This document shows positions 4,231 through 38,257 of a stretch of 64,000 nucleotides of DNA, piece after piece. The notes under the pieces were generated by a model, which was given only the letters and a program-made list of their open reading frames with translations, did not search any database and had not been told where the DNA came from. Source of the DNA: Cytophagales bacterium. GTDB lineage: Bacteria; Bacteroidota; Bacteroidia; Cytophagales; Cytophagaceae. Both the position numbers and the translations under genes were made by a program. Where the stretch lies: assembly GCA_004294225.1 (NCBI GenBank), contig REBA01000029.1, forward strand, positions 2,648 through 66,647, in the 5' to 3' direction. Within the stretch, counting starts at the first letter, position 1. Each line of letters opens with the position of its first letter.

Positions 4231-5862
4231 TTAACTATTGGTATTTAGTTTACTATGATGTCTACTATAGCCAAAGTAAAAAATAAGACCTATCAATAGC
4301 CAAACTCCAAAACGAATCCAGTTGGTGATTCCTAGTTCAGACATTAGGTAGAGATTGATATAAATACCCAATACAGGAATAGAAGAAAGTTGTTTTGTAA
4401 AGCTAATAATTGCAAATACAATTACTATTACCAAATAAATAATACTAGGAATATTAGAGTAAGTGAAATGATCAAAGACAAGAAAATCCCAATAAAATAA
4501 GTGGCTAATCAAAATTCCTAGACCAATAATTGGAATAAGAAATCTACCATTGATATACGGCACCTTAAAACCATTATTTTCATTGTCTAATGGTCGTTTT
4601 ACTAATATTCCAGCACAGACCAGAGTAAAGGCAAACAAAGTTCCTATACTACAAAGGTCTGTTACTTCTGTTAGATTAAGGAAAAGCACTGGTAAACCCA
4701 CCACTATACCTGTTACAATAGTTGAAAACCAAGGTGTCTTGAATTTTTGATGAATACTAGAAAAAATAGGAGGGAGCAAACCATCTCTACTCATACTCAT
4801 CCAAATTCTTGGTTGCCCAAGTTGGAAAACCAAGAGCACAGTAGCCAAAGATATAATTGCACTTAGGCCAATAATACCGGAAAGAAAATTTAGCCCATGA
4901 TGATGAAATACCAATGCCAATGGGTCGCCAACATTAAGTAAATAAAAAGGAACCATACCTGTGAGAATAAGCGTAACCAATACGTATAGAATAGTACATA
5001 TTGCAAGAGCCCAAAACATGGCTTTAGGCAAATCTCTTTTGGGGTTGATGCATTCTTCTGAGGTAGTTGCCAAAGCATCAAAACCAATATAAGCAAAAAA
5101 CACAGCTGAAGCACCTGTCATTATTCCCGAAAAACCATTTGGTGCAAAGGGTATCCACAAGCTGGGCGATACATAAAAAAATCCCACAACAATAATGAGT
5201 AAAATAATTATTAATTTGAACAATACCAATAGGTTATTAATTGATTTGGATTCTTTGATACCTATATATACAATAGCTGTAATCAATACATTAATTAGAA
5301 AAGCAGGTAAATCCATCACTATTTTTATCCCTTGAAGATTAGGTGCACTTGCCCAAGCTTCTGCTGCAATTTTTTCACTACCAACTAATACATTTAGATC
5401 AAGCATCGAAGCCCTACTGGCAGTAAAATAATCCATAGTAAGATAAAGAGGTATTTTGATATTTAACCCTTCTAAAAAGCTTGTAAAATAGTCAGACCAA
5501 GAAATAGCTACTGCTATGTTTCCAATAGAGTATTCCATGACTAAATCCCAGCCTATAATCCAAGCAATGAGTTCGCCAAATGAAATATATGCATAATGAT
5601 AGGCACTACCAGCTTCGGGGCTAAGAGAGGCAAATTCTGCATAACATAAAGCAGACAGAAGACAAGCTATAGCAGTAAATACAAACAATAAAGTTACTGC
5701 AGGCCCCCCTTGAGCACTGGCATTGCCAATAGTTCCATAAATACCCGCCCCTACTATTGCGGCTATACCCATAGAAGTAAGATCTCTAAGTCTTAGGGTT
5801 CTTTTTAATGGATTGAGTAGCAAAGTATCGCTACTTATCGTCTTTCTTTTAAAATAATTCAA
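4231..5862 (-). CDS. APC-family amino acid permease
   Basis: A 543-aa polytopic membrane protein with a typical APC N-terminus, 'LRDLTSMGIAAIVGAGIYGTIG', and about 12 or more hydrophobic segments. Confidence 0.8.
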   Translation of the reverse strand: MNYFKRKTISSDTLLLNPLKRTLRLRDLTSMGIAAIVGAGIYGTIGNASAQGGPAVTLLFVFTAIACLLSALCYAEFASLSPEAGSAYHYAYISFGELIAWIIGWDLVMEYSIGNIAVAISWSDYFTSFLEGLNIKIPLYLTMDYFTASRASMLDLNVLVGSEKIAAEAWASAPNLQGIKIVMDLPAFLINVLITAIVYIGIKESKSINNLLVLFKLIIILLIIVVGFFYVSPSLWIPFAPNGFSGIMTGASAVFFAYIGFDALATTSEECINPKRDLPKAMFWALAICTILYVLVTLILTGMVPFYLLNVGDPLALVFHHHGLNFLSGIIGLSAIISLATVLLVFQLGQPRIWMSMSRDGLLPPIFSSIHQKFKTPWFSTIVTGIVVGLPVLFLNLTEVTDLCSIGTLFAFTLVCAGILVKRPLDNENNGFKVPYINGRFLIPIIGLGILISHLFYWDFLVFDHFTYSNIPSIIYLVIVIVFAIISFTKQLSSIPVLGIYINLYLMSELGITNWIRFGVWLLIGLIFYFGYSRHHSKLNTNS

Positions 5863-5954
5863 TTTAATGTTTGGTTAAATCTATTTAAAGTAACAATGTT
5901 TTAGTTAAAAAACCGATTTAATTCAGATCATCGATAATGTAAGTCTAAATTTAA

Positions 5955-7235
5955 TCAATTGGATTGAAGTACCTCAAAAATGCTTGCTACTTTCAGCATA
6001 CACTCTTCATATTCTTTCTCAGCATCGCTGTCGAAGGTAATAGCACTTCCTACATAGAATCTTAGTTCATGGTCGTTAGAACAATATAAAATACTTCTTA
6101 TTACTACATTAAAATCAAAATCTCCATTAGGTTGGATATAGCCAATAGCACCAGAAAAATAACCTCTAGGATTAGTTTCATAATCATTGATTAAGTCTAT
6201 GGCTTTAATTTTAGGCGCTCCTGTCATACTCCCCATAGGGAAAGTAGATTTGATGATTTCACTAAATTTTATATTTGGTTTCAAGCGAGCAGAAATAGTA
6301 GATATCATTTGATGAAGGTGAGTAAAAGAGTAAATGCCAAATATCTCTTCTACTTTTACAGAGCCAATAGCAGATGTTTTTGCCAAGTCGTTTCTTGAAA
6401 GATCTACAATCATCATATTTTCAGCTTGTTCTTTCGGGCTATTTCTGAGTTTTTTTTGATTGGCTATATCTTTATTATTATCAGCTACTCTAGGGATAGT
6501 TCCTTTTATTGGTTGAATAATAATTAGATCAGAACTTTTCTTTAGGAATCTTTCAGGCGAGGCACATAGGATGGTTTGCTCAGGAGTTTTAAAAATTCCT
6601 GCAAAAGGCATTGGCGATTTGCTGTTTAATTTTAGAAAAGTAGTTATCGCATCAAAACCGGCTGTTTGTGCTGAAAAATCAATACAATAATTCAATTCAT
6701 ACACATCTCCTTCTTTGATATGTTGTTTGATTAAATTTATTTTTTCAATATAAGATTCTTTACTTGTTGTGTGTTTTATTAGAAAGTTAGAATTTTTTTT
6801 TGGTTGATTGATTGAGAAATCAATAATGGTGTTGTATATGGTCTTTGGGCTTATGTCCCAAGACCAGATTTCTATGCTAGAGGCGTTAAAAAAAAAGAGG
6901 TACTTGGGTTTGAAAAAATAAAGAAGACTTTGTTTTGATGAATTAGTGTTATGGTGTCGGTGTTCTATTTCATTTTTTAACTCATAACTCATGCATCCAC
7001 ACCACCATTCATTAGGATGGTTTTCTAAAAGTTGATCTAAGGTCTTTAGTGCAGAATTTTTTGGAGCAATTTCTATAAGGCTATCTATTCCCATCCAAGT
7101 TTGAAATCCTTGGTGCAACACTTCTATGTCGTTGGAGGTATAGTAGGCAAAATGATTAAACTGCTTTGCCCAATTCAAAGCATTGTTTATAAAACTAAGT
7201 TTATCTTGAAGCGGAAATGTTAGTTTATTATACAT
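5955..7235 (-). CDS. pabB: Aminodeoxychorismate synthase component I (chorismate-binding enzyme family)
   Basis: Chorismate-binding motifs 'SPERFLK', 'TFPMGSMTGAPK' and 'RGYFSGAIGY'. At 426 aa with no adjacent trp genes it favours PabB over TrpE. Confidence 0.65.
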   Translation of the reverse strand: MYNKLTFPLQDKLSFINNALNWAKQFNHFAYYTSNDIEVLHQGFQTWMGIDSLIEIAPKNSALKTLDQLLENHPNEWWCGCMSYELKNEIEHRHHNTNSSKQSLLYFFKPKYLFFFNASSIEIWSWDISPKTIYNTIIDFSINQPKKNSNFLIKHTTSKESYIEKINLIKQHIKEGDVYELNYCIDFSAQTAGFDAITTFLKLNSKSPMPFAGIFKTPEQTILCASPERFLKKSSDLIIIQPIKGTIPRVADNNKDIANQKKLRNSPKEQAENMMIVDLSRNDLAKTSAIGSVKVEEIFGIYSFTHLHQMISTISARLKPNIKFSEIIKSTFPMGSMTGAPKIKAIDLINDYETNPRGYFSGAIGYIQPNGDFDFNVVIRSILYCSNDHELRFYVGSAITFDSDAEKEYEECMLKVASIFEVLQSN

Positions 7236-7289: not shown

Positions 7290-8048
7290 TTATTTTTTAG
7301 CTCCTACTAATTCTGCTACCACAGGGCTTTCTACATCGCAGAATATTCTTCCGCAATGTTCGCAAACGATGATTTTCTTTTTTTCACGTATATCTCCCTG
7401 TCTTTGAGGAGGTACAGTATTAAAGCAACCACCACAAGCATCTCTTTTTACAGGTACAACAGCTAAACCATTCACTGCATTGGAGCGAATTCTGTTATAA
7501 GAGTAAAGTAAACGCTCATCAATAGATTTTTCGGCTATTTGTCTTTCTTTTTTTAGCTTATTTTCTTCTTCTTTACTTTCATCTACAATCTGCTCTAGCT
7601 CTACTTTTTTATTTTTTAAATCGGCTAATCTTTGATTTAAAATTTGCTCAGCAGATTCTATTTCTTTTTGCTTGCCTTCAATTTTCACGTTGGCTTCTCT
7701 AGTTTTCTTTTCCATAATCTGGATTTCTAGAGTTTGAAGTTCTATCTCCTTGGTGATAGCGTCATATTCGCGATTGTTTCTAACATTAGATTGCTGTTCG
7801 GTATATTTTTTAATATTCTTTTCAGCATCTTTTGCACCTTGTTTGTACTTGGTTTTTTCTTGTTCTAAGATTTCTATTTCAGAATTGTACTTGGCTATTC
7901 TTGTTTTATAGCCTTCTAATTCGTCTTCTAAATCTCTAACTTCTTCGGGCAAATCGCCTCTAACTTTTAGAATTTCATCTAGTTTAGAATCTATTGTTTG
8001 TAATTTTACCAGTGCTTCAAGTTTTTGTGCTACGGTGGTTTCCATCAT
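7290..8048 (-). CDS. Coiled-coil protein with a C-terminal C4 zinc ribbon (DUF164/COG1579-type)
   Basis: Has a long heptad-rich region and then 'CGGCFNTVPPQ...VCEHCGRIF'. It sits in the usual position after Nif3. Confidence 0.7.
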   Translation of the reverse strand: MMETTVAQKLEALVKLQTIDSKLDEILKVRGDLPEEVRDLEDELEGYKTRIAKYNSEIEILEQEKTKYKQGAKDAEKNIKKYTEQQSNVRNNREYDAITKEIELQTLEIQIMEKKTREANVKIEGKQKEIESAEQILNQRLADLKNKKVELEQIVDESKEEENKLKKERQIAEKSIDERLLYSYNRIRSNAVNGLAVVPVKRDACGGCFNTVPPQRQGDIREKKKIIVCEHCGRIFCDVESPVVAELVGAKK

Positions 8049-24917: not shown

Positions 24918-27900
24918 ATGATTTTCCTCTTGAATAATATTCGTTTAGTTCTACTTACATCACTAATGCTGATGAGAATAGGTTATCTATGCTATTCGAA
25001 ACCATTTCATAAGCCCAATGAATCCAAAAAGCTGGAGTACCTTTTTATCGAAAACAAAGGACAGTGGAAATCAGAGATATTATTTAGAGCCAATATTGGG
25101 CATGGTGATTTGTTTTTAGAGAAAAACCGTATGGTTTATTTCCTTAAAGACAATTCTATATTTGATCATCATTCCTTAGTTAAAGGTTTACCTTCAGATA
25201 AAATAAAACAAAATGCACATATTTTTAAAGTAGATTTTGTGGGAGCTAATACCAACTCTACTATGGAGACTGAACATCCTGCACCTTGCACCTACAATTA
25301 TTTCAGAGGTAACGACGCTTCAAAATGGGTTTCCAATGCAAAATCCTATAAAAAAATCAATTATCGTCAATTGTATGAAGGTATAGACTTAGATTTTTAT
25401 AGCAAAGGAGACTTTCTGAAATACGATTTTATTGTTCAACCGAACGTTAGCCCAAATCAAATCAAATTAAAATTTGAAGGAGCAGATGCTTTAAAACTTG
25501 AAAATGGGCAATTGTTGATTCAAACTTCTATCGTGAACATCAGAGAAAAAGCCCCAATTGCTTATCAGATAATCAATCAAAAAAAGTGCAATGTGCCTTG
25601 TAGGTTTGTCCTTCGTGGAAATGAAGTTAGCTACGAATTCCCAAATGGATACAATCAAAATTATCAATTAATTATAGATCCAGAACTTATTTTTTCTACT
25701 TACTCAGGTTCCAAAGTGGATAATTTTGGGTTTACAGCAACATTTGATTCAGATGGTTTTTTGTATTCTGGAAGTGCTGTCTTTGATGACCCAAATATTC
25801 AGAATGGCTACCCTACTACCTTAGGAGCATTTCAAAATGAAATTACTGGAGCATGCGATTTTGCTATAAGCAAATACGACACTACTGGTACAACAATGAT
25901 TTATTCCACCCTAATTGGTGGTTCACTCGACGAAGTACCTCATAGTATTGTTGCCAATACAAATGGAGAATTATATATCTTAGGCACTACTGGCTCTGCA
26001 GATTTTCCATTATTAAATCCAATTCAAGCTGTTTTTAATGGGGGAGACCCTGTACTTTTTCAATCTATCAATGTATCGCATCCTTTTGGAGTAGATTTAT
26101 TTATTACCAAACTCAATAACACAGGTTCGCAAATAATTAGCTCCACTTTTTTTGGCGGTACTAAAAATGATGGAATCAATAGCCTTGCAAATTCTTTTCC
26201 AATCAATTTTTTAGGTCGTGGATTGCTGAATATATTTTCTCCACTAAGCTATAATTATGCTGATGAAATAAGGGGAGAAATTGATTTGGACGCCAATGGA
26301 GAAGTGTATATTACCACCTGCACCGCTTCTCCAGATTTTCCTGTTACTCCCAATGCCTTTCAGCAAGTATTCGGAGGGGGCAGATTAGATGGCTGTATTA
26401 CCAAGTTTGATAACTCAGTTAGTCAAGTTATTTGGAGTTCTTTTTTAGGGAGCAGTGAATCAGATGCTTTATATTCTATAGACTTTGATAGCGTCAACCA
26501 AATCTACGTAGCTGGTGGTACTAATTCTATAGACCTTCCTACCCAACTTACTTCTTTTCAAAGAAATTCAAACCGTGGTAGGGCAGAGGGATACGTTGCT
26601 AAAATAAGTGCAAATGGCAATACTATCTTGGCATCTACCTATTGGGGTAATTTTTCTTATGACCAGATTTATTTTGTAGAATTAGATGGTAGGGGAAATG
26701 TGTATGTACTTGGTCAATCAGAGGATGGAGGAAATTATTTTATTAGAAATACAGCTTACTCAGTTCCTAATGCTGGGCAATTTATTACCAAATTCTCCAA
26801 TAATCTCAATCAGCTTATTTGGTCCACATCTTTTGGTACTCTCGGTGGCAGACCTAATTTGTCTCTAACAGCATTTCTTGTAGATTTATGCAGTAATGTG
26901 TATTTATCTGGTTGGGGCGGGAAAACAAATTCTGATTTGCTTGCTTATCTACCCAATGGTAATTCATTCAATATCTTTAGAGCAAATAACACTGTTTCTA
27001 CCGCTGGTCTGCCTACTACAGCAGACGCTTTTCAGAGAACTACAGATGGAAGCGACTTTTATTTGATGGTATTAGGTGACTCCTCTAGATTAGTCTATGG
27101 TTCATTTTTTGGTGGAGATAGAAGCACAGAGCACGTAGATGGTGGTACAAGTAGGTTTGATAGAAAAGGTAAGATTTATCAATCAGTCTGTGCTGGATGT
27201 CAAGGAAACAGTGATTTTCCGATAAAACCAACAAATGCTGTTTCTCCCATAAATGGTAGTACAAATTGTAACAATGCTGTTTTTAAATTTGATTTTAATC
27301 TGCCTATTGTAGTTGCAGATTTTAACTTTTCAGGTTGCAATCCTATCTTTTTTAATAATAAAAGTCTAACCCAAAAAGCCACCAATTTCCTTTGGAAATT
27401 TGGAGATGGTCAAACTTCAAGAGAGAAAACCCCATCACATACTTATGCTAGGTCTGGTACCTACAAAGTAACCTTAGTTGTTACAGATAATTTTACCTGT
27501 AATCTTGGAGACTCAATTACAAAACTAGTCTATGTTTCGCCTCTTTACGATGGGGTAAGTGCTACTGCTAATCCTGAGACTATAATTGAAGGAAAAAGCA
27601 CTTTATTATCTGCGTTTCCAGTTGGAAATTATACCTATCTTTGGTCTCCCTCAAAAATATTATCTAATCCTAACTTACCTTCTACAACAGCAAAGCCCAG
27701 AGATACGACAGATTTTGAAGTAGAAATTACGGATAAGTTGAATAATTGCTCTTATAAAGCTAAAGTAAGGGTAAATGTTATTGATGTCATTTGCGATGAG
27801 CCAAACATCTTTGTTCCCAATGCTTTTAGCCCAAATGACGATGATAACAACGAAGTTCTAAAAGTTAGAGGAATAAATATAGCCACTATGTATTTTGCAA

Positions 27901-28073
27901 TTTATGACCGCTGGGGCGAAAAAGTGTTTGATACCAATACACAGGAAAAAGGTTGGGATGGAAGATATAGAGGCAAAAAACTAGATCCAGATGTATATGT
28001 TTACTATCTAGAAGGTATTTGTATAGATGAAGAAAAGTTTCTTTTTAAAGGTAACATTAGCCTAATACGATAA
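24918..28073 (+). CDS. Large cell-surface protein with beta-propeller repeats, a PKD domain and a T9SS type-B (gliding-motility-associated) C-terminal domain
   Basis: PKD is marked by 'FLWKFGDGQTSREKTPSHTYARSGTYKVTLVVTD'. The type-B CTD reads 'IFVPNAFSPNDDDNNEVLKVRG...IYDRWGEKVF...GWDGRYRGKKLDPDVYVYYL'. Confidence 0.85.
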   Translation: MIFLLNNIRLVLLTSLMLMRIGYLCYSKPFHKPNESKKLEYLFIENKGQWKSEILFRANIGHGDLFLEKNRMVYFLKDNSIFDHHSLVKGLPSDKIKQNAHIFKVDFVGANTNSTMETEHPAPCTYNYFRGNDASKWVSNAKSYKKINYRQLYEGIDLDFYSKGDFLKYDFIVQPNVSPNQIKLKFEGADALKLENGQLLIQTSIVNIREKAPIAYQIINQKKCNVPCRFVLRGNEVSYEFPNGYNQNYQLIIDPELIFSTYSGSKVDNFGFTATFDSDGFLYSGSAVFDDPNIQNGYPTTLGAFQNEITGACDFAISKYDTTGTTMIYSTLIGGSLDEVPHSIVANTNGELYILGTTGSADFPLLNPIQAVFNGGDPVLFQSINVSHPFGVDLFITKLNNTGSQIISSTFFGGTKNDGINSLANSFPINFLGRGLLNIFSPLSYNYADEIRGEIDLDANGEVYITTCTASPDFPVTPNAFQQVFGGGRLDGCITKFDNSVSQVIWSSFLGSSESDALYSIDFDSVNQIYVAGGTNSIDLPTQLTSFQRNSNRGRAEGYVAKISANGNTILASTYWGNFSYDQIYFVELDGRGNVYVLGQSEDGGNYFIRNTAYSVPNAGQFITKFSNNLNQLIWSTSFGTLGGRPNLSLTAFLVDLCSNVYLSGWGGKTNSDLLAYLPNGNSFNIFRANNTVSTAGLPTTADAFQRTTDGSDFYLMVLGDSSRLVYGSFFGGDRSTEHVDGGTSRFDRKGKIYQSVCAGCQGNSDFPIKPTNAVSPINGSTNCNNAVFKFDFNLPIVVADFNFSGCNPIFFNNKSLTQKATNFLWKFGDGQTSREKTPSHTYARSGTYKVTLVVTDNFTCNLGDSITKLVYVSPLYDGVSATANPETIIEGKSTLLSAFPVGNYTYLWSPSKILSNPNLPSTTAKPRDTTDFEVEITDKLNNCSYKAKVRVNVIDVICDEPNIFVPNAFSPNDDDNNEVLKVRGINIATMYFAIYDRWGEKVFDTNTQEKGWDGRYRGKKLDPDVYVYYLEGICIDEEKFLFKGNISLIR

Positions 28074-35727: not shown

Positions 35728-35770
35728 ATGCTGCGTACTTCCATACAACGCAGTCCACAGCCATAGTGTC

Positions 35771-36057
35771 TCGTCCTAAAAAAAGTTGAGCGTTTAATTG
35801 ATTTATCCTGCTATTGATTTACAGTTCTAGTTTAGTCCTGTATATGGATTTAATAAGCTCAAGGCTTGTCTTTGTTTACAAACTCTTCCATGCTTCGCAT
35901 TTGCATTTGAAATAGGTCTTGAGGGGGCGATTAGGGCATATTTGAGATGTGTTTTCCTTTTTTAAATAGTCAATTACACGTTCTTTTCTAATTATTATTT
36001 TGATATATTTACTAGAAAATAAACGGTAGTTTTTTCACAAACTGACGTTGGATGATA
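35771..36057 (+). repeat. Copy 1 of a ~287-bp direct repeat (module R) preceding a cassette ORF
   Basis: By-eye alignment with 37008-37296. The first ~170 nt are nearly identical, the next ~60 nt are roughly 80% identical, and the last ~60 nt are nearly identical. Confidence 0.85.
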
Positions 36058-36111
36058 TGCTTACCCAGCATTCTGTAAAATTGATAGAGTAAAACCAAAG
36101 ATATTATTTTG

Positions 36112-36119
36112 TAACTTTG
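36112..36119 (+). promoter_or_regulatory. Candidate -7 promoter box (TAACTTTG)
   Basis: Matches TAnnTTTG and ends 6 nt before the ATG at 36126, which implies a near-leaderless transcript. Confidence 0.3.
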
Positions 36120-36125
36120 TAAACT

Positions 36126-36701
36126 ATGACAGAAAAAAATCTTTATATAATTGCGGGTTGTAACGGAGCTGGAAAAACAACAGCTTCATTTACAATTCTA
36201 CCCGAAATAATTGACTGTAAAGAATTTGTAAATGCTGACGAAATTGCAAAAGGATTATCACCTTTTCAACCCACAAAAGTAGCTTTTGAAGCGGGTAGAA
36301 TAATGCTAAAAAGAATGGATGAATTGTTGAATAATAATGAAAATTTCGCTTTTGAAACTACATTGTCAACAAGAAGTTACAAAACAAAAATTATCGAAGC
36401 AAAAGAGAAAGGTTACACCACAACTTTGCTTTTCTTTTGGCTTCAAAATGTGGAATTAGCCAAAGAGCGTGTGAAAATAAGAGTTTTGGAAGGCGGACAT
36501 AATATTGAACCTGAAGTTATTGAAAGGCGATATTACAGAGGCATAAAAAATCTATTTGAAATTTACTTACCAATAGTTGACGGAACATTGATTTTTGACA
36601 ATTCAAATGGAAAACACGAACTTTTAGCTGAAAAAACAGTTGATGGACGAATAAATATTATTGACCAAGAGAAGTTTAACGAACTAAATAATATAAAATG
36701 A
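36126..36701 (+). CDS. Zeta-toxin-like / COG4185-type P-loop ATPase
   Basis: Walker A is 'IAGCNGAGKTT'. Also contains 'FVNADEIAKGLSP', 'FAFETTLS' and 'ERVKIRVLEGGHNIPEEVIERRY'-like 'RVLEGGHNIEPEVIERRY'. Confidence 0.7.
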   Translation: MTEKNLYIIAGCNGAGKTTASFTILPEIIDCKEFVNADEIAKGLSPFQPTKVAFEAGRIMLKRMDELLNNNENFAFETTLSTRSYKTKIIEAKEKGYTTTLLFFWLQNVELAKERVKIRVLEGGHNIEPEVIERRYYRGIKNLFEIYLPIVDGTLIFDNSNGKHELLAEKTVDGRINIIDQEKFNELNNIK

Positions 36702-36850
36702 CAACAGTAGAAAAACAAATAGAACTTAGAAATAAAATTTTATTTGGGCTTGAAAAAGTTTACGAAAAATTAATTGAATTTAAGAAACAAAAAAATACGA
36801 AACTTGTTGTAATGAGAGACAACAAAATAGTAAAAGTAATGCCTGAATAA
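36698..36850 (+). CDS. 50-aa ORF translationally coupled to the zeta-like ATPase (candidate partner or antitoxin)
   Basis: Not in the track because it is under 60 aa. An ATGA start/stop overlap lies at 36698-36701. The hand translation is MTTVEKQIELRNKILFGLEKVYEKLIEFKKQKNTKLVVMRDNKIVKVMPE. Confidence 0.4.
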   Translation: MTTVEKQIELRNKILFGLEKVYEKLIEFKKQKNTKLVVMRDNKIVKVMPE

Positions 36851-36863
36851 AAACACGTCGCCT

Positions 36864-36917
36864 AAAAACTAAGTCTTCGTGGTGGCTGCAAGCCAAGCCA
36901 TGAAGACGGTGTTGAAC
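36864..36917 (+). repeat. Imperfect hairpin element (module E, copy A) after cassette 1
   Basis: GTCTTCGTGGTGGCT-GCA-AGCCAAGCCATGAAGAC (36873-36907) has unpaired bases in the 3' arm. It is flanked by ..AAAAAC and GTTGAAC. Sequence similarity to copy B continues to about 36985. Confidence 0.5.
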
Positions 36918-37007
36918 ATTTCAAAAACAATAGTTTTTGAGAAAGTATGTGCGGTATGTTTTGGGAGAGTGCTTATTTATTATGGGTTTCTGGTGTAGAG
37001 ATTTGTT

Positions 37008-37296
37008 TCGTCCTAAAAAAAGTTGAGCGTTTAATTGATTTATCCTGCTATTGATTTACAGTTCTAGTTTAGTTCTGTATATGTAATTTAATAAGCTCAA
37101 GGCTTGTCTTTGTTTACAAACTCTTCCATGCTTCGCATTTGCATTTGAAATCGGTCTTGAGGGGGCGATTAGGGCATATTTGATATCTGTTCTCCCTTTT
37201 AAAATATTCAATTACAGGTTCTCTTCCAATTATTATTTTGATATATTTACAAAAAAATAAACGATAGTTTTTTCACAAACTGACGTTAGATGAAAT
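37008..37296 (+). repeat. Copy 2 of the ~287-bp direct repeat (module R)
   Basis: See copy 1. Both begin TCGTCCTAAAAAAAGTTGAGCG and end ..TTTTTTCACAAACTGACGTT(G/A)GATGA. Confidence 0.85.
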
Positions 37297-37315
37297 TTAA
37301 AAATAACTGAGATAA

Positions 37316-37921
37316 ATGAACCAAAAGCTAGTTATTGAACAAAAAAGAGGACGGCAGCTTAGAAAGTATCAGATATTGGATGACGAAATTAAAGCTGAGT
37401 TAAGGACCGACAGCACATATCGAGCCTTTTCATTTAAGTTTGACGACATTGAATTCAATGAAATGGTTGTTGATACTAAACCAAATCCAGTTGAGATTGG
37501 CTTATTCCTATCAGTACTGTTTAACTTAATGTTCAGTGTGATTTTAATTTCGGACTGGGCCGAGAAAATGCAAATTGGAACAGTTGGGGTTTCTTCGACA
37601 TTAATTGGTGTGGTGAGTGGAATGAGTATTTGGACTTACAACCTATTCAGGTTTGAACGCGAGAAAATACTCAAAGGAACGCAAAATATATTCCTGTTTT
37701 ATTCGAAGAAGGATCAGCAAGAAGTGGACGACTTTATACAAGTACTAAAGAACAAACAAAAGGAATATTTTAGAAAAACATATATGTATTTTGACGATAC
37801 ATTAGACTTGTGGACTTACGAAAGCAGACTTAAGTGGCTCTTAGAGAAAAGGTTTATTGAAAAAGAAGAATATAAGAATCTTCAAGAAGAAATTACCAAC
37901 AGACGACTTTTGGGCGACTAA
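37316..37921 (+). CDS. Hypothetical membrane protein (cassette 2)
   Basis: A 201-aa protein with two central hydrophobic segments, 'IGLFLSVLFNLMFSVILI' and 'VSSTLIGVVSGMSIW'. No recognisable domain. Confidence 0.5.
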   Translation: MNQKLVIEQKRGRQLRKYQILDDEIKAELRTDSTYRAFSFKFDDIEFNEMVVDTKPNPVEIGLFLSVLFNLMFSVILISDWAEKMQIGTVGVSSTLIGVVSGMSIWTYNLFRFEREKILKGTQNIFLFYSKKDQQEVDDFIQVLKNKQKEYFRKTYMYFDDTLDLWTYESRLKWLLEKRFIEKEEYKNLQEEITNRRLLGD

Positions 37922-37933
37922 ACTGCAATCCAA

Positions 37934-37980
37934 AACTAAGTCTTCGTAGTGTCTGGAAACCAAGCCAAGATGCTGTTGAA
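37934..37980 (+). repeat. Module E, copy B (degenerate hairpin) after cassette 2
   Basis: AAAACTAAGTCTTCGTAGTGTCTGGAAACCAAGCCAAGATGCTGTTGAA aligns with copy A, but the stem pairing is poorer. A further similar stretch, ..GGTGTTTTGGGTAAGTGATTAT, runs to about 38022. Confidence 0.4.
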
Positions 37981-38212
37981 AGTTAACTTTGCTAGTGGTG
38001 TTTTGGGTAAGTGATTATCTGATTTTGATACTATTCAAAAAAATGTATTTTTCTAAAACATCATTTCCCCTCATGGTGAATCCATTATTGGTATAGGATA
38101 GCATGAATTTCTGACCTAGTTTTTCTTTAATCAGCTTAAATAAGTATATTTTTTCTACAGCGGAATCTAGGCTCATTATCAGATAGACTAATATTTTGTT
38201 GCATAATTCTTG

Positions 38213-38220
38213 TAACTTTG
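38213..38220 (+). promoter_or_regulatory. Candidate -7 promoter box (TAACTTTG)
   Basis: Matches TAnnTTTG, 38 nt upstream of the ATG at 38258. Confidence 0.3.
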
Positions 38221-38257
38221 AAAAAAACTATTGTAAAAATCTTATTATTCTATCAAA

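Follow-up and report, generated by a model that had tools for sequence, protein, structure and literature searches.

A probable relic pair of integron-type cassettes with IS1182-family insertion sequence fragments in a Cytophagales bacterium

Background

Chromosomal integrons carry toxin-antitoxin cassettes, and insertion specific to attC, the recombination site of a cassette, is known for the IS1111-attC group of insertion sequences (ISs; IS110 family) and for the group IIC-attC introns. Clusters of attC sites that have no integron integrase (CALIN) comprise two or more attC sites within 4 kb with no integron integrase near them (PMC4889954), and two cassettes is their commonest size; single attC sites of this kind are termed SALIN (CALIN/SALIN: PMC4889954; 10.1101/2022.09.11.507474). 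The rAID-1 arrays of Bacteroidales are defined by a XerD-like recombinase at the 5′ end, short co-oriented genes and repeated intergenic motifs (Ross et al., 10.1101/471110). The locus described here is a cluster of ~2.5 kb within a stretch of 64,000 nucleotides from a Cytophagales bacterium (assembly GCA_004294225.1, contig REBA01000029.1, positions 2,648 to 66,647 of the forward strand), hereafter called the window, whose own numbering is used throughout. The cluster contains two unrelated cargos, A (a gene for a zeta-toxin-family ATPase and a 50-aa open reading frame, ORF) and B (a gene for a 201-aa protein), each preceded by one copy of a long repeat (R1, R2) and followed by one copy of a shorter module (E_A, E_B).

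A first-pass annotation had described this layout of repeats and downstream modules around unrelated cargos, and repeat alignment and domain search agree that it is real; the repeats lie where they had been placed, with boundaries shifted by 1-4 nt. The interpretation has changed more than the map. The R repeats can be identified as fragments of an IS of the IS1182 family, cargo A as an integron-type cassette in other genomes, and E as a conserved structured family in the position of attC; with moderate confidence, the whole is read as the relic of a two-cassette, integrase-less, CALIN-like cluster that bears IS scars.

Results and discussion

The R repeats as the broken left end of an insertion sequence

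R1 and R2 align with 93.5% identity over ~292 nt, with 19 differences and one 1-nt indel; in a direct-repeat search, 35767-35851 matched 37004-37088 at 95% and 35848-36058 matched 37086-37296 at 93%. A 59-nt core of R occurs in exactly two copies in the window and in 0 of 100 shuffles. Divergence between the copies is uneven, 3.8% at R positions 1-185 and 11.2% at positions 186-292, so that the near-identity first reported for the initial ~170 nt holds, whereas the last ~60 nt, for which it was also reported, are only ~95% identical.

When one genome per species was scanned with a 20-nt R core as query, two related IS fragments and two chance 20-mers were found. The fragments belong to a Daejeonella metagenome-assembled genome (L004; related loci are designated by L-numbers) and to a contig end of Pedobacter sp. 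JCM 36344 (L003); among the other related loci, L178 is a Chryseobacterium plasmid and L118 an IMG/VR contig. The R-like stretch of L004 consists of the upstream region of an opposite-strand gene together with its first codons, and the N-terminus of the encoded protein matches Pfam DUF772 (PF05598, 9.8e-15) and the NCBIfam IS1182 transposase model NF033551 (98 bits, model positions 5-129). R positions 96-283 have 74-76% identity to IS left ends in L004, L009 and L010, coding homology to the IS reaches ~R position 68 (tblastx, E = 1e-17), and the homologues are named 'IS1182 family transposase' in annotated RefSeq and plasmid records. The remnant of the transposase start in R1 was compared in translation with the sequence MAYL..DRFQ[MV]QMRSMEEFV.KD.P of related IS1182 transposases; the transposase remnant in R carries stops and a frameshift. 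Judged by eye from codon spacing (KDKP + 10 aa + LEL; N..FL), R positions 1-95 would also consist of decayed transposase codons, with ~30 nt deleted.

Alignment of R1, R2 and five related loci revealed a common terminus, ..GGTAGTTTTTTCACA[A/G]ACTG[A/C]CGTT, a shared, conserved block of the promoter region, TTTGATATATTTAC, and the transposase start, decayed in R. The terminus is present as inverted repeats at both ends of elements of 1802 bp in L007, 1713 bp in L052 and 1718 bp in L178. One intact relative is the IS at positions 5240-6957 of NZ_CP041688.1, a plasmid of Chryseobacterium sp. SNU WT5. In the window, no inverted partner of the left inverted repeat (IRL) of R was found at 5 or fewer mismatches, and tblastx found no other IS segment; with neither partner nor further segment in the window, R can be identified as an incomplete element, a truncated, one-ended, pseudogenised fragment of an IS1182-family IS. 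R resembles the family in the homology of its transposase N-terminus (DUF772, NF033551) and of its terminal repeat; it differs from the related elements of 1.7-1.8 kb in that it is a pseudogenised piece of ~290 nt, has a single end and occurs twice in the same broken form. The first-pass annotation had preferred to see in R a conserved cassette or attachment module and had named a fragment of a known IS as an outcome that would refute this; homology and terminal repeat give just that outcome.

Two apparent resemblances to the other end of the IS were discarded. The left ends of R and E_A had looked by eye like an IS right end, a reading dropped in view of the tblastx match and codon spacing that assign R positions 1-95 to decayed transposase codons. 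The 86-nt tail between E_A and R2 was likewise tried as a decayed IS right end, and its similarity to the right-end side of five relatives was not significant.

In Pedobacter sp. JCM 36344, 48 nt at L003 3245-3292 are 100% identical to R positions 100-147; the match stands at the contig end, with unrelated sequence after it. These 48 nt are one more broken copy of an IS very like that of R, in a genus whose housekeeping genes are much more diverged; this indicates that the IS has recently spread by horizontal transfer.

Relatives of the insertion sequence at attC sites

ISs related to R lie at the 5′ boundaries of integron cassettes in 7 of 7 independent Bacteroidota sites (L004 7165-7661; L007 3893-5694; L009 3890-4993 and 5602-5790, or L009a and L009b; L047 3416-4096; L052 3414-5126; L178 2914-4631), with the transposase always antisense to the cassettes. 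The bases that follow the IS left end (..CTGACG|TTRRRY..) match exactly, in reverse complement, an R''-type box located after the next ORF or ORFs: the complementarity extends over 9 of 9 positions in L004 (R'' box at +1497 downstream) and over 10 of 10 in L009b (+482), L052 (+1297) and L047 (+476), where the chance expectation per match is ~0.004-0.02. Because a cassette start complementary to its own R'' is a signature of integron cassettes, these ISs are taken to abut cassettes. At the other end, a 3′ arm of attC stands directly before the IS right end in L009a, L007, L052 and L178, and it pairs with the sequence after the R'' box (..TAAC-A-stem ... stem-AAAAC). ACGT was read by eye at both IS junctions, and the target A[ACGT]T spans the spacer and the R' box. 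The R copies of the window end in ..GACG|TTGGAT and ..GACG|TTAGAT, both of the form GTTRRRY. Together these junction sequences identify attC as the apparent target of the IS relatives of R.

No report of a link between IS1182-family elements and attC was found in the literature. The IS relatives resemble IS1111-attC elements and group IIC-attC introns in that they insert in one orientation into the attC sites of cassette arrays, at the R' end, and stay between cassettes; they differ in having terminal inverted repeats of ~20 bp and a 4-bp ACGT duplication, and are neither DEDD ISs nor retro-introns. This IS1182-family lineage thus appears to recognise attC with base-pair precision at all seven sites. 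It would join the few known attC-targeting elements and would be relevant to the break-up, silencing or re-promotion of cassette arrays.

Cargo A as an integron cassette and the homologues of cargo B

The 191-aa protein of cargo A matches Pfam Zeta_toxin (E = 5.5e-11), in keeping with its first label as a zeta-like ATPase, and has more than 8000 homologues, the best of which are 82-92% identical and belong to Pedobacter, Flavobacteriales, Chryseobacterium and other Bacteroidota. For the neighbouring hydrolase, the best non-self protein is only 60% identical. A cargo with homologues up to 91-92% identical beside a gene with none above 60% is thereby marked as acquired horizontally.

The unit formed by the zeta-family gene and the 50-aa ORF is sharply bounded and ~790 bp long: its DNA homology to seven other loci, at 80-90% identity, is limited to 36076/36096-36850/36865. 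In L042-L045, the unit runs from G|TTAGGC to an R'' box GCCTAAC that is followed by a long imperfect palindrome (L''/L') and GTTAG; the first bases of each cassette of that array match its own R'', and the zeta unit lies between canonical attC sites. These features identify cargo A as an integron-type cassette in other genomes, as judged from its boundaries there. In the window, cargo A starts right after the R1 terminus, at the position that aligns with the cassette start of L042-L045, and it keeps GCCTAA at the R'' position, homologous to the GCCTAAC of the canonical zeta cassette; the sequence specific to E_A starts at that point.

The zeta-family ATPase and its 50-aa partner are probably a toxin-antitoxin pair. 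Cargo A is like the toxin-antitoxin cassettes of integrons in being a small two-gene unit with an apparent promoter of its own, wide horizontal spread and a presence in cassette arrays, and unlike them in that the small ORF is downstream of the zeta-family gene; the toxin-antitoxin role is putative here. The 50-aa and 201-aa proteins have no match in Pfam, NCBIfam or PADLOC, and the same three databases revealed no recognised immunity domain in the cargo proteins.

The pair of a zeta-family gene and a 49/50-aa ORF (36126-36850 in the window; L039-L045) has 80-90% DNA identity across classes of Bacteroidota and has a different attC-type 3′ site in each host, and the locus exemplifies one highly conserved toxin-like cassette with different 3′ sites in different hosts. 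Many metagenomic contigs with the pair reach only 1-2 kb, as though assemblies stopped at the edges of the pair. In L042 (4200-10100), the zeta cassette lies in an array where units of ~547 nt without ORFs recur between attC sites; the 25-nt motif CATTCTGCTTACCCCACCAAACCCC is present there 15 times and TTTTGACGACCATTGTGTGA 14 times.

The 201-aa protein of cargo B has 126 representative homologues, the best of them 74% identical. A homologue with 39% identity is encoded in the cassette array of L056 and is followed there by an E-type hairpin; a second E-type hairpin of L056 follows a DUF1287 gene, and the same array has long attC-like sites whose last bases are GTTAGCA and GTTGTGG.

The E modules

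E_A and E_B contain a common module of ~55 nt just past the stop codon of each cargo. Block 1 (36865-36903 and 37932-37970, 87% identical) begins 10-14 nt after the stop codons, and a shorter block 2 follows downstream (Table 1). The E_A hairpin has 15 base pairs, a 2-nt bulge and a GCA loop, with a folding energy of -14 kcal/mol (z = -3.3; 0 of 200 shuffles match it), which corroborates the hairpin with a 3-nt loop between ..AAC and GTTGAAC of the first-pass annotation. E_B forms no stable hairpin (z = +0.13).

A family of such hairpins became apparent when the window copies were compared with those of L056 and a third lineage in L118. Across the three, 7 of 16 stem pairs have changed on both sides and still pair, the position of the bulge is kept, and the share of paired cells is 85.5%, compared with 67% for shuffles and 26-43% for slid controls. 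The intact E copies do not vary in CTGCAAG around the loop or in the tail GTGTTGAAC, each of which has one substitution in E_B. E is a conserved structured family in the position of attC. A covariance model of the family matches only E_A (83.7 bits) and E_B (63.6 bits, with some positions unpaired) in the window.

By the measures applied to attC, the two copies fare differently. The GTTGAAC of E_A fits the R' box GTTRRRY and the GTTGAAA of E_B has one mismatch to it; E_A, with a total of 58 nt and extrahelical bases, agrees with the attC palindrome (~57-141 nt) and E_B does not. A canonical R'' box (RYYYAAC, complementary to R') is absent from the window copies, which read RYYY-A(4-5)-C. Rfam gave no attC-type match for E, either at the gathering threshold or at E up to 10, and a weak match between E_A and an attC arm of L009 is marginal, being equalled in 10 of 300 shuffles. 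Because R'' is non-canonical and pairs with R' through AAC/GTT at most, E is here called attC-like, not attC, and E_B is a decayed copy. Of the likeness to integron sites that had been suggested at first, the cassette-like layout, the occurrence of cargo A as a cassette elsewhere and the attC position of E stand, but E_A lacks a canonical R''/R' and E_B has lost its hairpin. Should E be a working site, searches for integrons in Bacteroidota may be overlooking cassettes.

Two further hairpins were seen in related loci. In L009, the stop codon of an S41 peptidase gene is immediately followed by a short hairpin with near-perfect pairing, at 7581-7641 (-) between ..ATAAC and GTTGGCG, which is a weak match to the E model (25 bits) and stands at the margin of a cassette-like region. 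The E hairpin of L118 (34-98 (-), 56.5 bits; IMGVR_UViG_3300010965_000478, a contig classed as viral) is beside a gene on the opposite strand, and the GC content of this element is 0.58 in AT-rich surroundings.

A different reading, in which E forms the 3′ end of a minus-strand gene, was suggested by the peptides FNTVFMAWLAATTKT and FNSILAWFPDTTKT, each ending at a stop codon, and by an in-frame 3-nt indel. It was dropped because the two copies of block 2 are not in the same frame and because covariation of the stems is seen between genomes.

Recombinase search and comparison with integrase-less clusters

The domain scan of the window covered 36 of the 39 ORFs of at least 180 aa (all except two antisense shadow ORFs and a 1051-aa ORF at 24918-28073) and the 50-aa ORF. 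These ORFs gave no integrase, recombinase or transposase domain, as had been noted at first sight for recombinases, and the neighbourhood consists of housekeeping genes. Neither the genome scan with the R core nor a metagenome scan with a 20-mer from the left of R, the latter giving chance matches only, recovered the full R or the window E sequences; viral scans with a 16-nt E_A seed and the R core gave chance matches or nothing, and a plasmid search for copies of R or E gave nothing. The only other assembly of the organism (Logan SRR7244343) breaks inside R.

Set against the definition of a CALIN, the cluster has two E sites 1.07 kb apart and no integrase among the scanned ORFs of the window, with the attC status of E putative and E_B decayed. 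It is like CALIN and SALIN in that small, co-directional accessory genes each have an imperfect-palindrome site after them, no integrase is nearby, and cargo A is a canonical cassette elsewhere. It differs in that its 3′ sites are without a canonical R''/R' duplex, one of them being decayed, and in that remnants of an IS stand at the junctions.

Origin of the cluster

The explanation favoured here is that the region is the remnant of an integron-type cassette array that is now without an integrase. E would be the 3′ recombination-site-like module of the array, made of the R''-homologous box after the stop codon, the bulged hairpin and the GTTGAAC end, and its position and structure suggest that it once worked as an attC-type site. 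R would be foreign to the cassette system, derived from an IS lineage that inserts one way at an ACGT overlapping the AAC|GTT junction of attC; since insertion at this ACGT in one orientation means that the IS left end always abuts the TTRRRY of the next cassette, R would come to lie directly 5′ of cargos that are unrelated to each other. The truncation point and internal defects common to R1 and R2 argue for one broken fragment and not two independent IS insertions, so both copies probably came from one decayed fragment that was spread by non-transpositional recombination, whether through duplication, by gene conversion or when a two-cassette circle was reinserted. R is mosaic in its divergence and E is more diverged than R, which suggests gene conversion at a later time. 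The cluster is presumably immobile now. Understood as such a relic, the locus is ordinary in kind, an acquired and decayed cassette pair with IS scars, and does not represent a new kind of gene array.

Several observations weigh against this explanation. The R'' of E_A (GCCTAAAAAC) is non-canonical, pairing with R' through AAC/GTT only, and the E copies of L056 have no AAC on the 5′ side. GTTGAAC and several of the next bases are conserved among copies, whereas a crossover point at G|TT would be expected to have variable neighbours. The E_B hairpin has been lost without compensating changes. The start of cassette A fits its own R'' at just 3 of 6 positions (TTGGAT/GCCTAA), compared with 5 of 6 for cassette B (TTAGAT/ATCCAA) and 9-10 of 9-10 in the related loci. 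R2 is 86 nt beyond the GTTGAAC of E_A, not inside it, and the truncation and defects that R1 and R2 share imply that R was copied by a route other than transposition.

The simplest competitor is a local tandem duplication of a unit of ~1.24 kb containing R, cargo and E, with one cargo replaced later, so that R and E would be mere segment ends. The R copies are indeed 1237-1238 nt apart, there is no E to the left of R1 and no R to the right of E_B, and neither R nor E was found elsewhere in the genome, metagenome and plasmid searches. Moreover, the likeness of E_B to the E_A-R2 interval ends (~36980) within ~25 nt of the start of the likeness to R1 (37004), a coincidence that would fit the junction of a tandem duplication or a two-cassette circle opened within the E-R unit. 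Duplication is nevertheless unlikely: the cargos are unrelated and the R-to-E intervals have different lengths (806 nt for cargo A, 635 nt for cargo B), so a precise replacement is still needed; a single event is insufficient when E is ~15% diverged, R 6.5%, and R itself is a mosaic of 3.8% and 11.2%; and neither the occurrence of cargo A as a cassette elsewhere nor the E behind the cargo B homologue of L056 is accounted for. A second competitor is cargo exchange by homologous recombination after DNA uptake, with R and E serving as the flanks, as in 'minimal mobile elements', without any site-specific recombinase. Conserved flanks around variable cargo, the horizontal spread of cargo A and the recombinase not found in the window are what such exchange predicts, but cargo A occurs elsewhere without R or E flanks, its homology stops sharply at the cassette boundaries, and the full R and window E sequences were not found in the genome and metagenome scans, which makes this explanation decidedly improbable.

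That E might be an RNA element of the cargo transcripts, a stabiliser in the 3′ untranslated region or an atypical terminator, and not a DNA recombination site, is about as improbable as tandem duplication. E lies on the coding strand shortly after the stop codons, two lineages keep a G-T(U) wobble at one stem position that pairs on the plus strand only, and covariation cannot tell RNA from single-stranded DNA; however, there is no U-tract after the stem, the terminator scan was empty and Rfam had no match, while the invariance of loop and 9-nt tail across distant genomes suggests recognition by a sequence-specific protein, the neighbouring gene in L118 is on the other strand, and E occupies the attC position of a known cassette. 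To a recombinase-associated array of the rAID-1 type, to which the first-pass annotation had likened the cluster, we give almost no weight. The cluster resembles it in its short, co-oriented accessory genes and repeated intergenic sequence, and the published description mentions integron-like intergenic repeats (10.1101/471110). The defining XerD-like tyrosine recombinase at the 5′ end was not found among the scanned ORFs of the 64 kb, however, which excludes rAID-1 by its own criteria; the cargos are also without recognised immunity-gene signatures, and the long repeat is an IS fragment. Hardly more credible is R as a structured leader RNA or riboswitch, the other early suggestion, or as a miniature inverted-repeat transposable element (MITE) mobilised twice, for which nested inverted repeats in R and two near-identical copies, each at an attC-type target GTTRGAT, could be cited. 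R folds no better than shuffles (z = -1.65 and -0.75), there is no relevant Rfam match at the gathering threshold in the whole window or at E up to 10 in the region, and the 'inverted repeats' fall in decayed transposase codons; as a two-ended MITE, R would need a partner for its single terminal repeat, which is absent at up to 5 mismatches, and the tail before R2 is unlike IS right ends.

The relic integron-type cluster could also be less classical than has been supposed. E might be the site of a Bacteroidota cassette system other than IntI/attC, with a bulged hairpin, a CTGCAAG loop and the GTGTTGAAC tail in place of an R''/R' duplex, and the window would then hold a two-cassette fragment of that system; at the same time, the IS lineage of R would be an undescribed, attC-specific branch of the IS1182 family that inserts in one orientation at ACGT, a DDE counterpart of IS1111-attC. 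Both proposals are tentative and, taken as a whole, rather doubtful.

Features of the region and its flanks

The coordinates of the features are collected in Table 1. The cluster sits between an alpha/beta hydrolase gene and a PhyH gene, flanks that had been named as such before and were recovered by a Pfam search of the window ORFs.

Table 1. Features of the cassette-like cluster, in window coordinates
Feature	Position	Strand	Description
R1	35767..36058	-	Truncated, decayed left (5′) end of an IS1182-family IS; outer terminus 36049; shared repeat extends to 36058
Transposase-start remnant	35862..35939	-	ATG at 35939-35937; M-P-premature stop, then QDLFQMQMRSMEEFVNKDKP ending at a stop
IRL of R1 IS remnant	36025..36049	+	GGTAGTTTTTTCACAAACTGACGTT; 1 mismatch to the terminus consensus of both ends of related ISs
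Cassette A	36048..36917	+	Begins TTGGAT right after the R1 IS terminus (G|TT); contains the zeta-family gene, the 50-aa ORF and E_A
Zeta-toxin-family ATPase gene	36126-36701	+	191 aa; in cassette A
50-aa ORF	36698-36850	+	Overlaps the zeta-family gene; in cassette A
E_A, attC-like	36860..36917	+	R''-like GCCTAAAAAC (36860-36869), hairpin 36873-36907, R'-like GTTGAAC (36911-36917)
Spacer between E_A and R2	36918..37003	+	86 nt; contains block 2 (36957-36976)
R2	37004..37296	-	Second copy of the truncated IS left end of R1; terminus 37287; IRL 37263-37287
Cassette B	37286..37981	+	Begins TTAGAT right after the R2 IS terminus; contains the 201-aa gene and E_B
201-aa protein gene	37316-37921	+	Two hydrophobic segments, judged by eye
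E_B, decayed E copy	37928..37981	+	Stem degenerate, between R''-like ATCCAAAAC (37928-37936) and R'-like GTTGAAA (37975-37981)
Block 2 copy after E_B	37999..38018	+	TGTTTTGGGTAAGTGATTAT; 85% identical to 36957-36976

Scans of the region for sigma-70 promoters and for terminators were uninformative, the latter finding nothing at E. The zeta cassette has a TAnnTTTG-like motif at 36112-36119. The longer motif TTGTAACTTTG, which includes a TAnnTTTG-like Bacteroidota -7 box, occurs at 36109-36119 and again at 38210-38220, just 5′ of the zeta-family and PhyH genes, respectively; in the zeta cassette this longer motif is kept in all homologous loci, and its conservation suggests that the cassette has a promoter of its own. 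At the opposite edge of the cluster, directly after the hydrolase stop codon and before R1, a hairpin CTGCGT-(11 nt)-ACGCAG at 35731-35754 may be a remnant of the hydrolase gene's own terminator.

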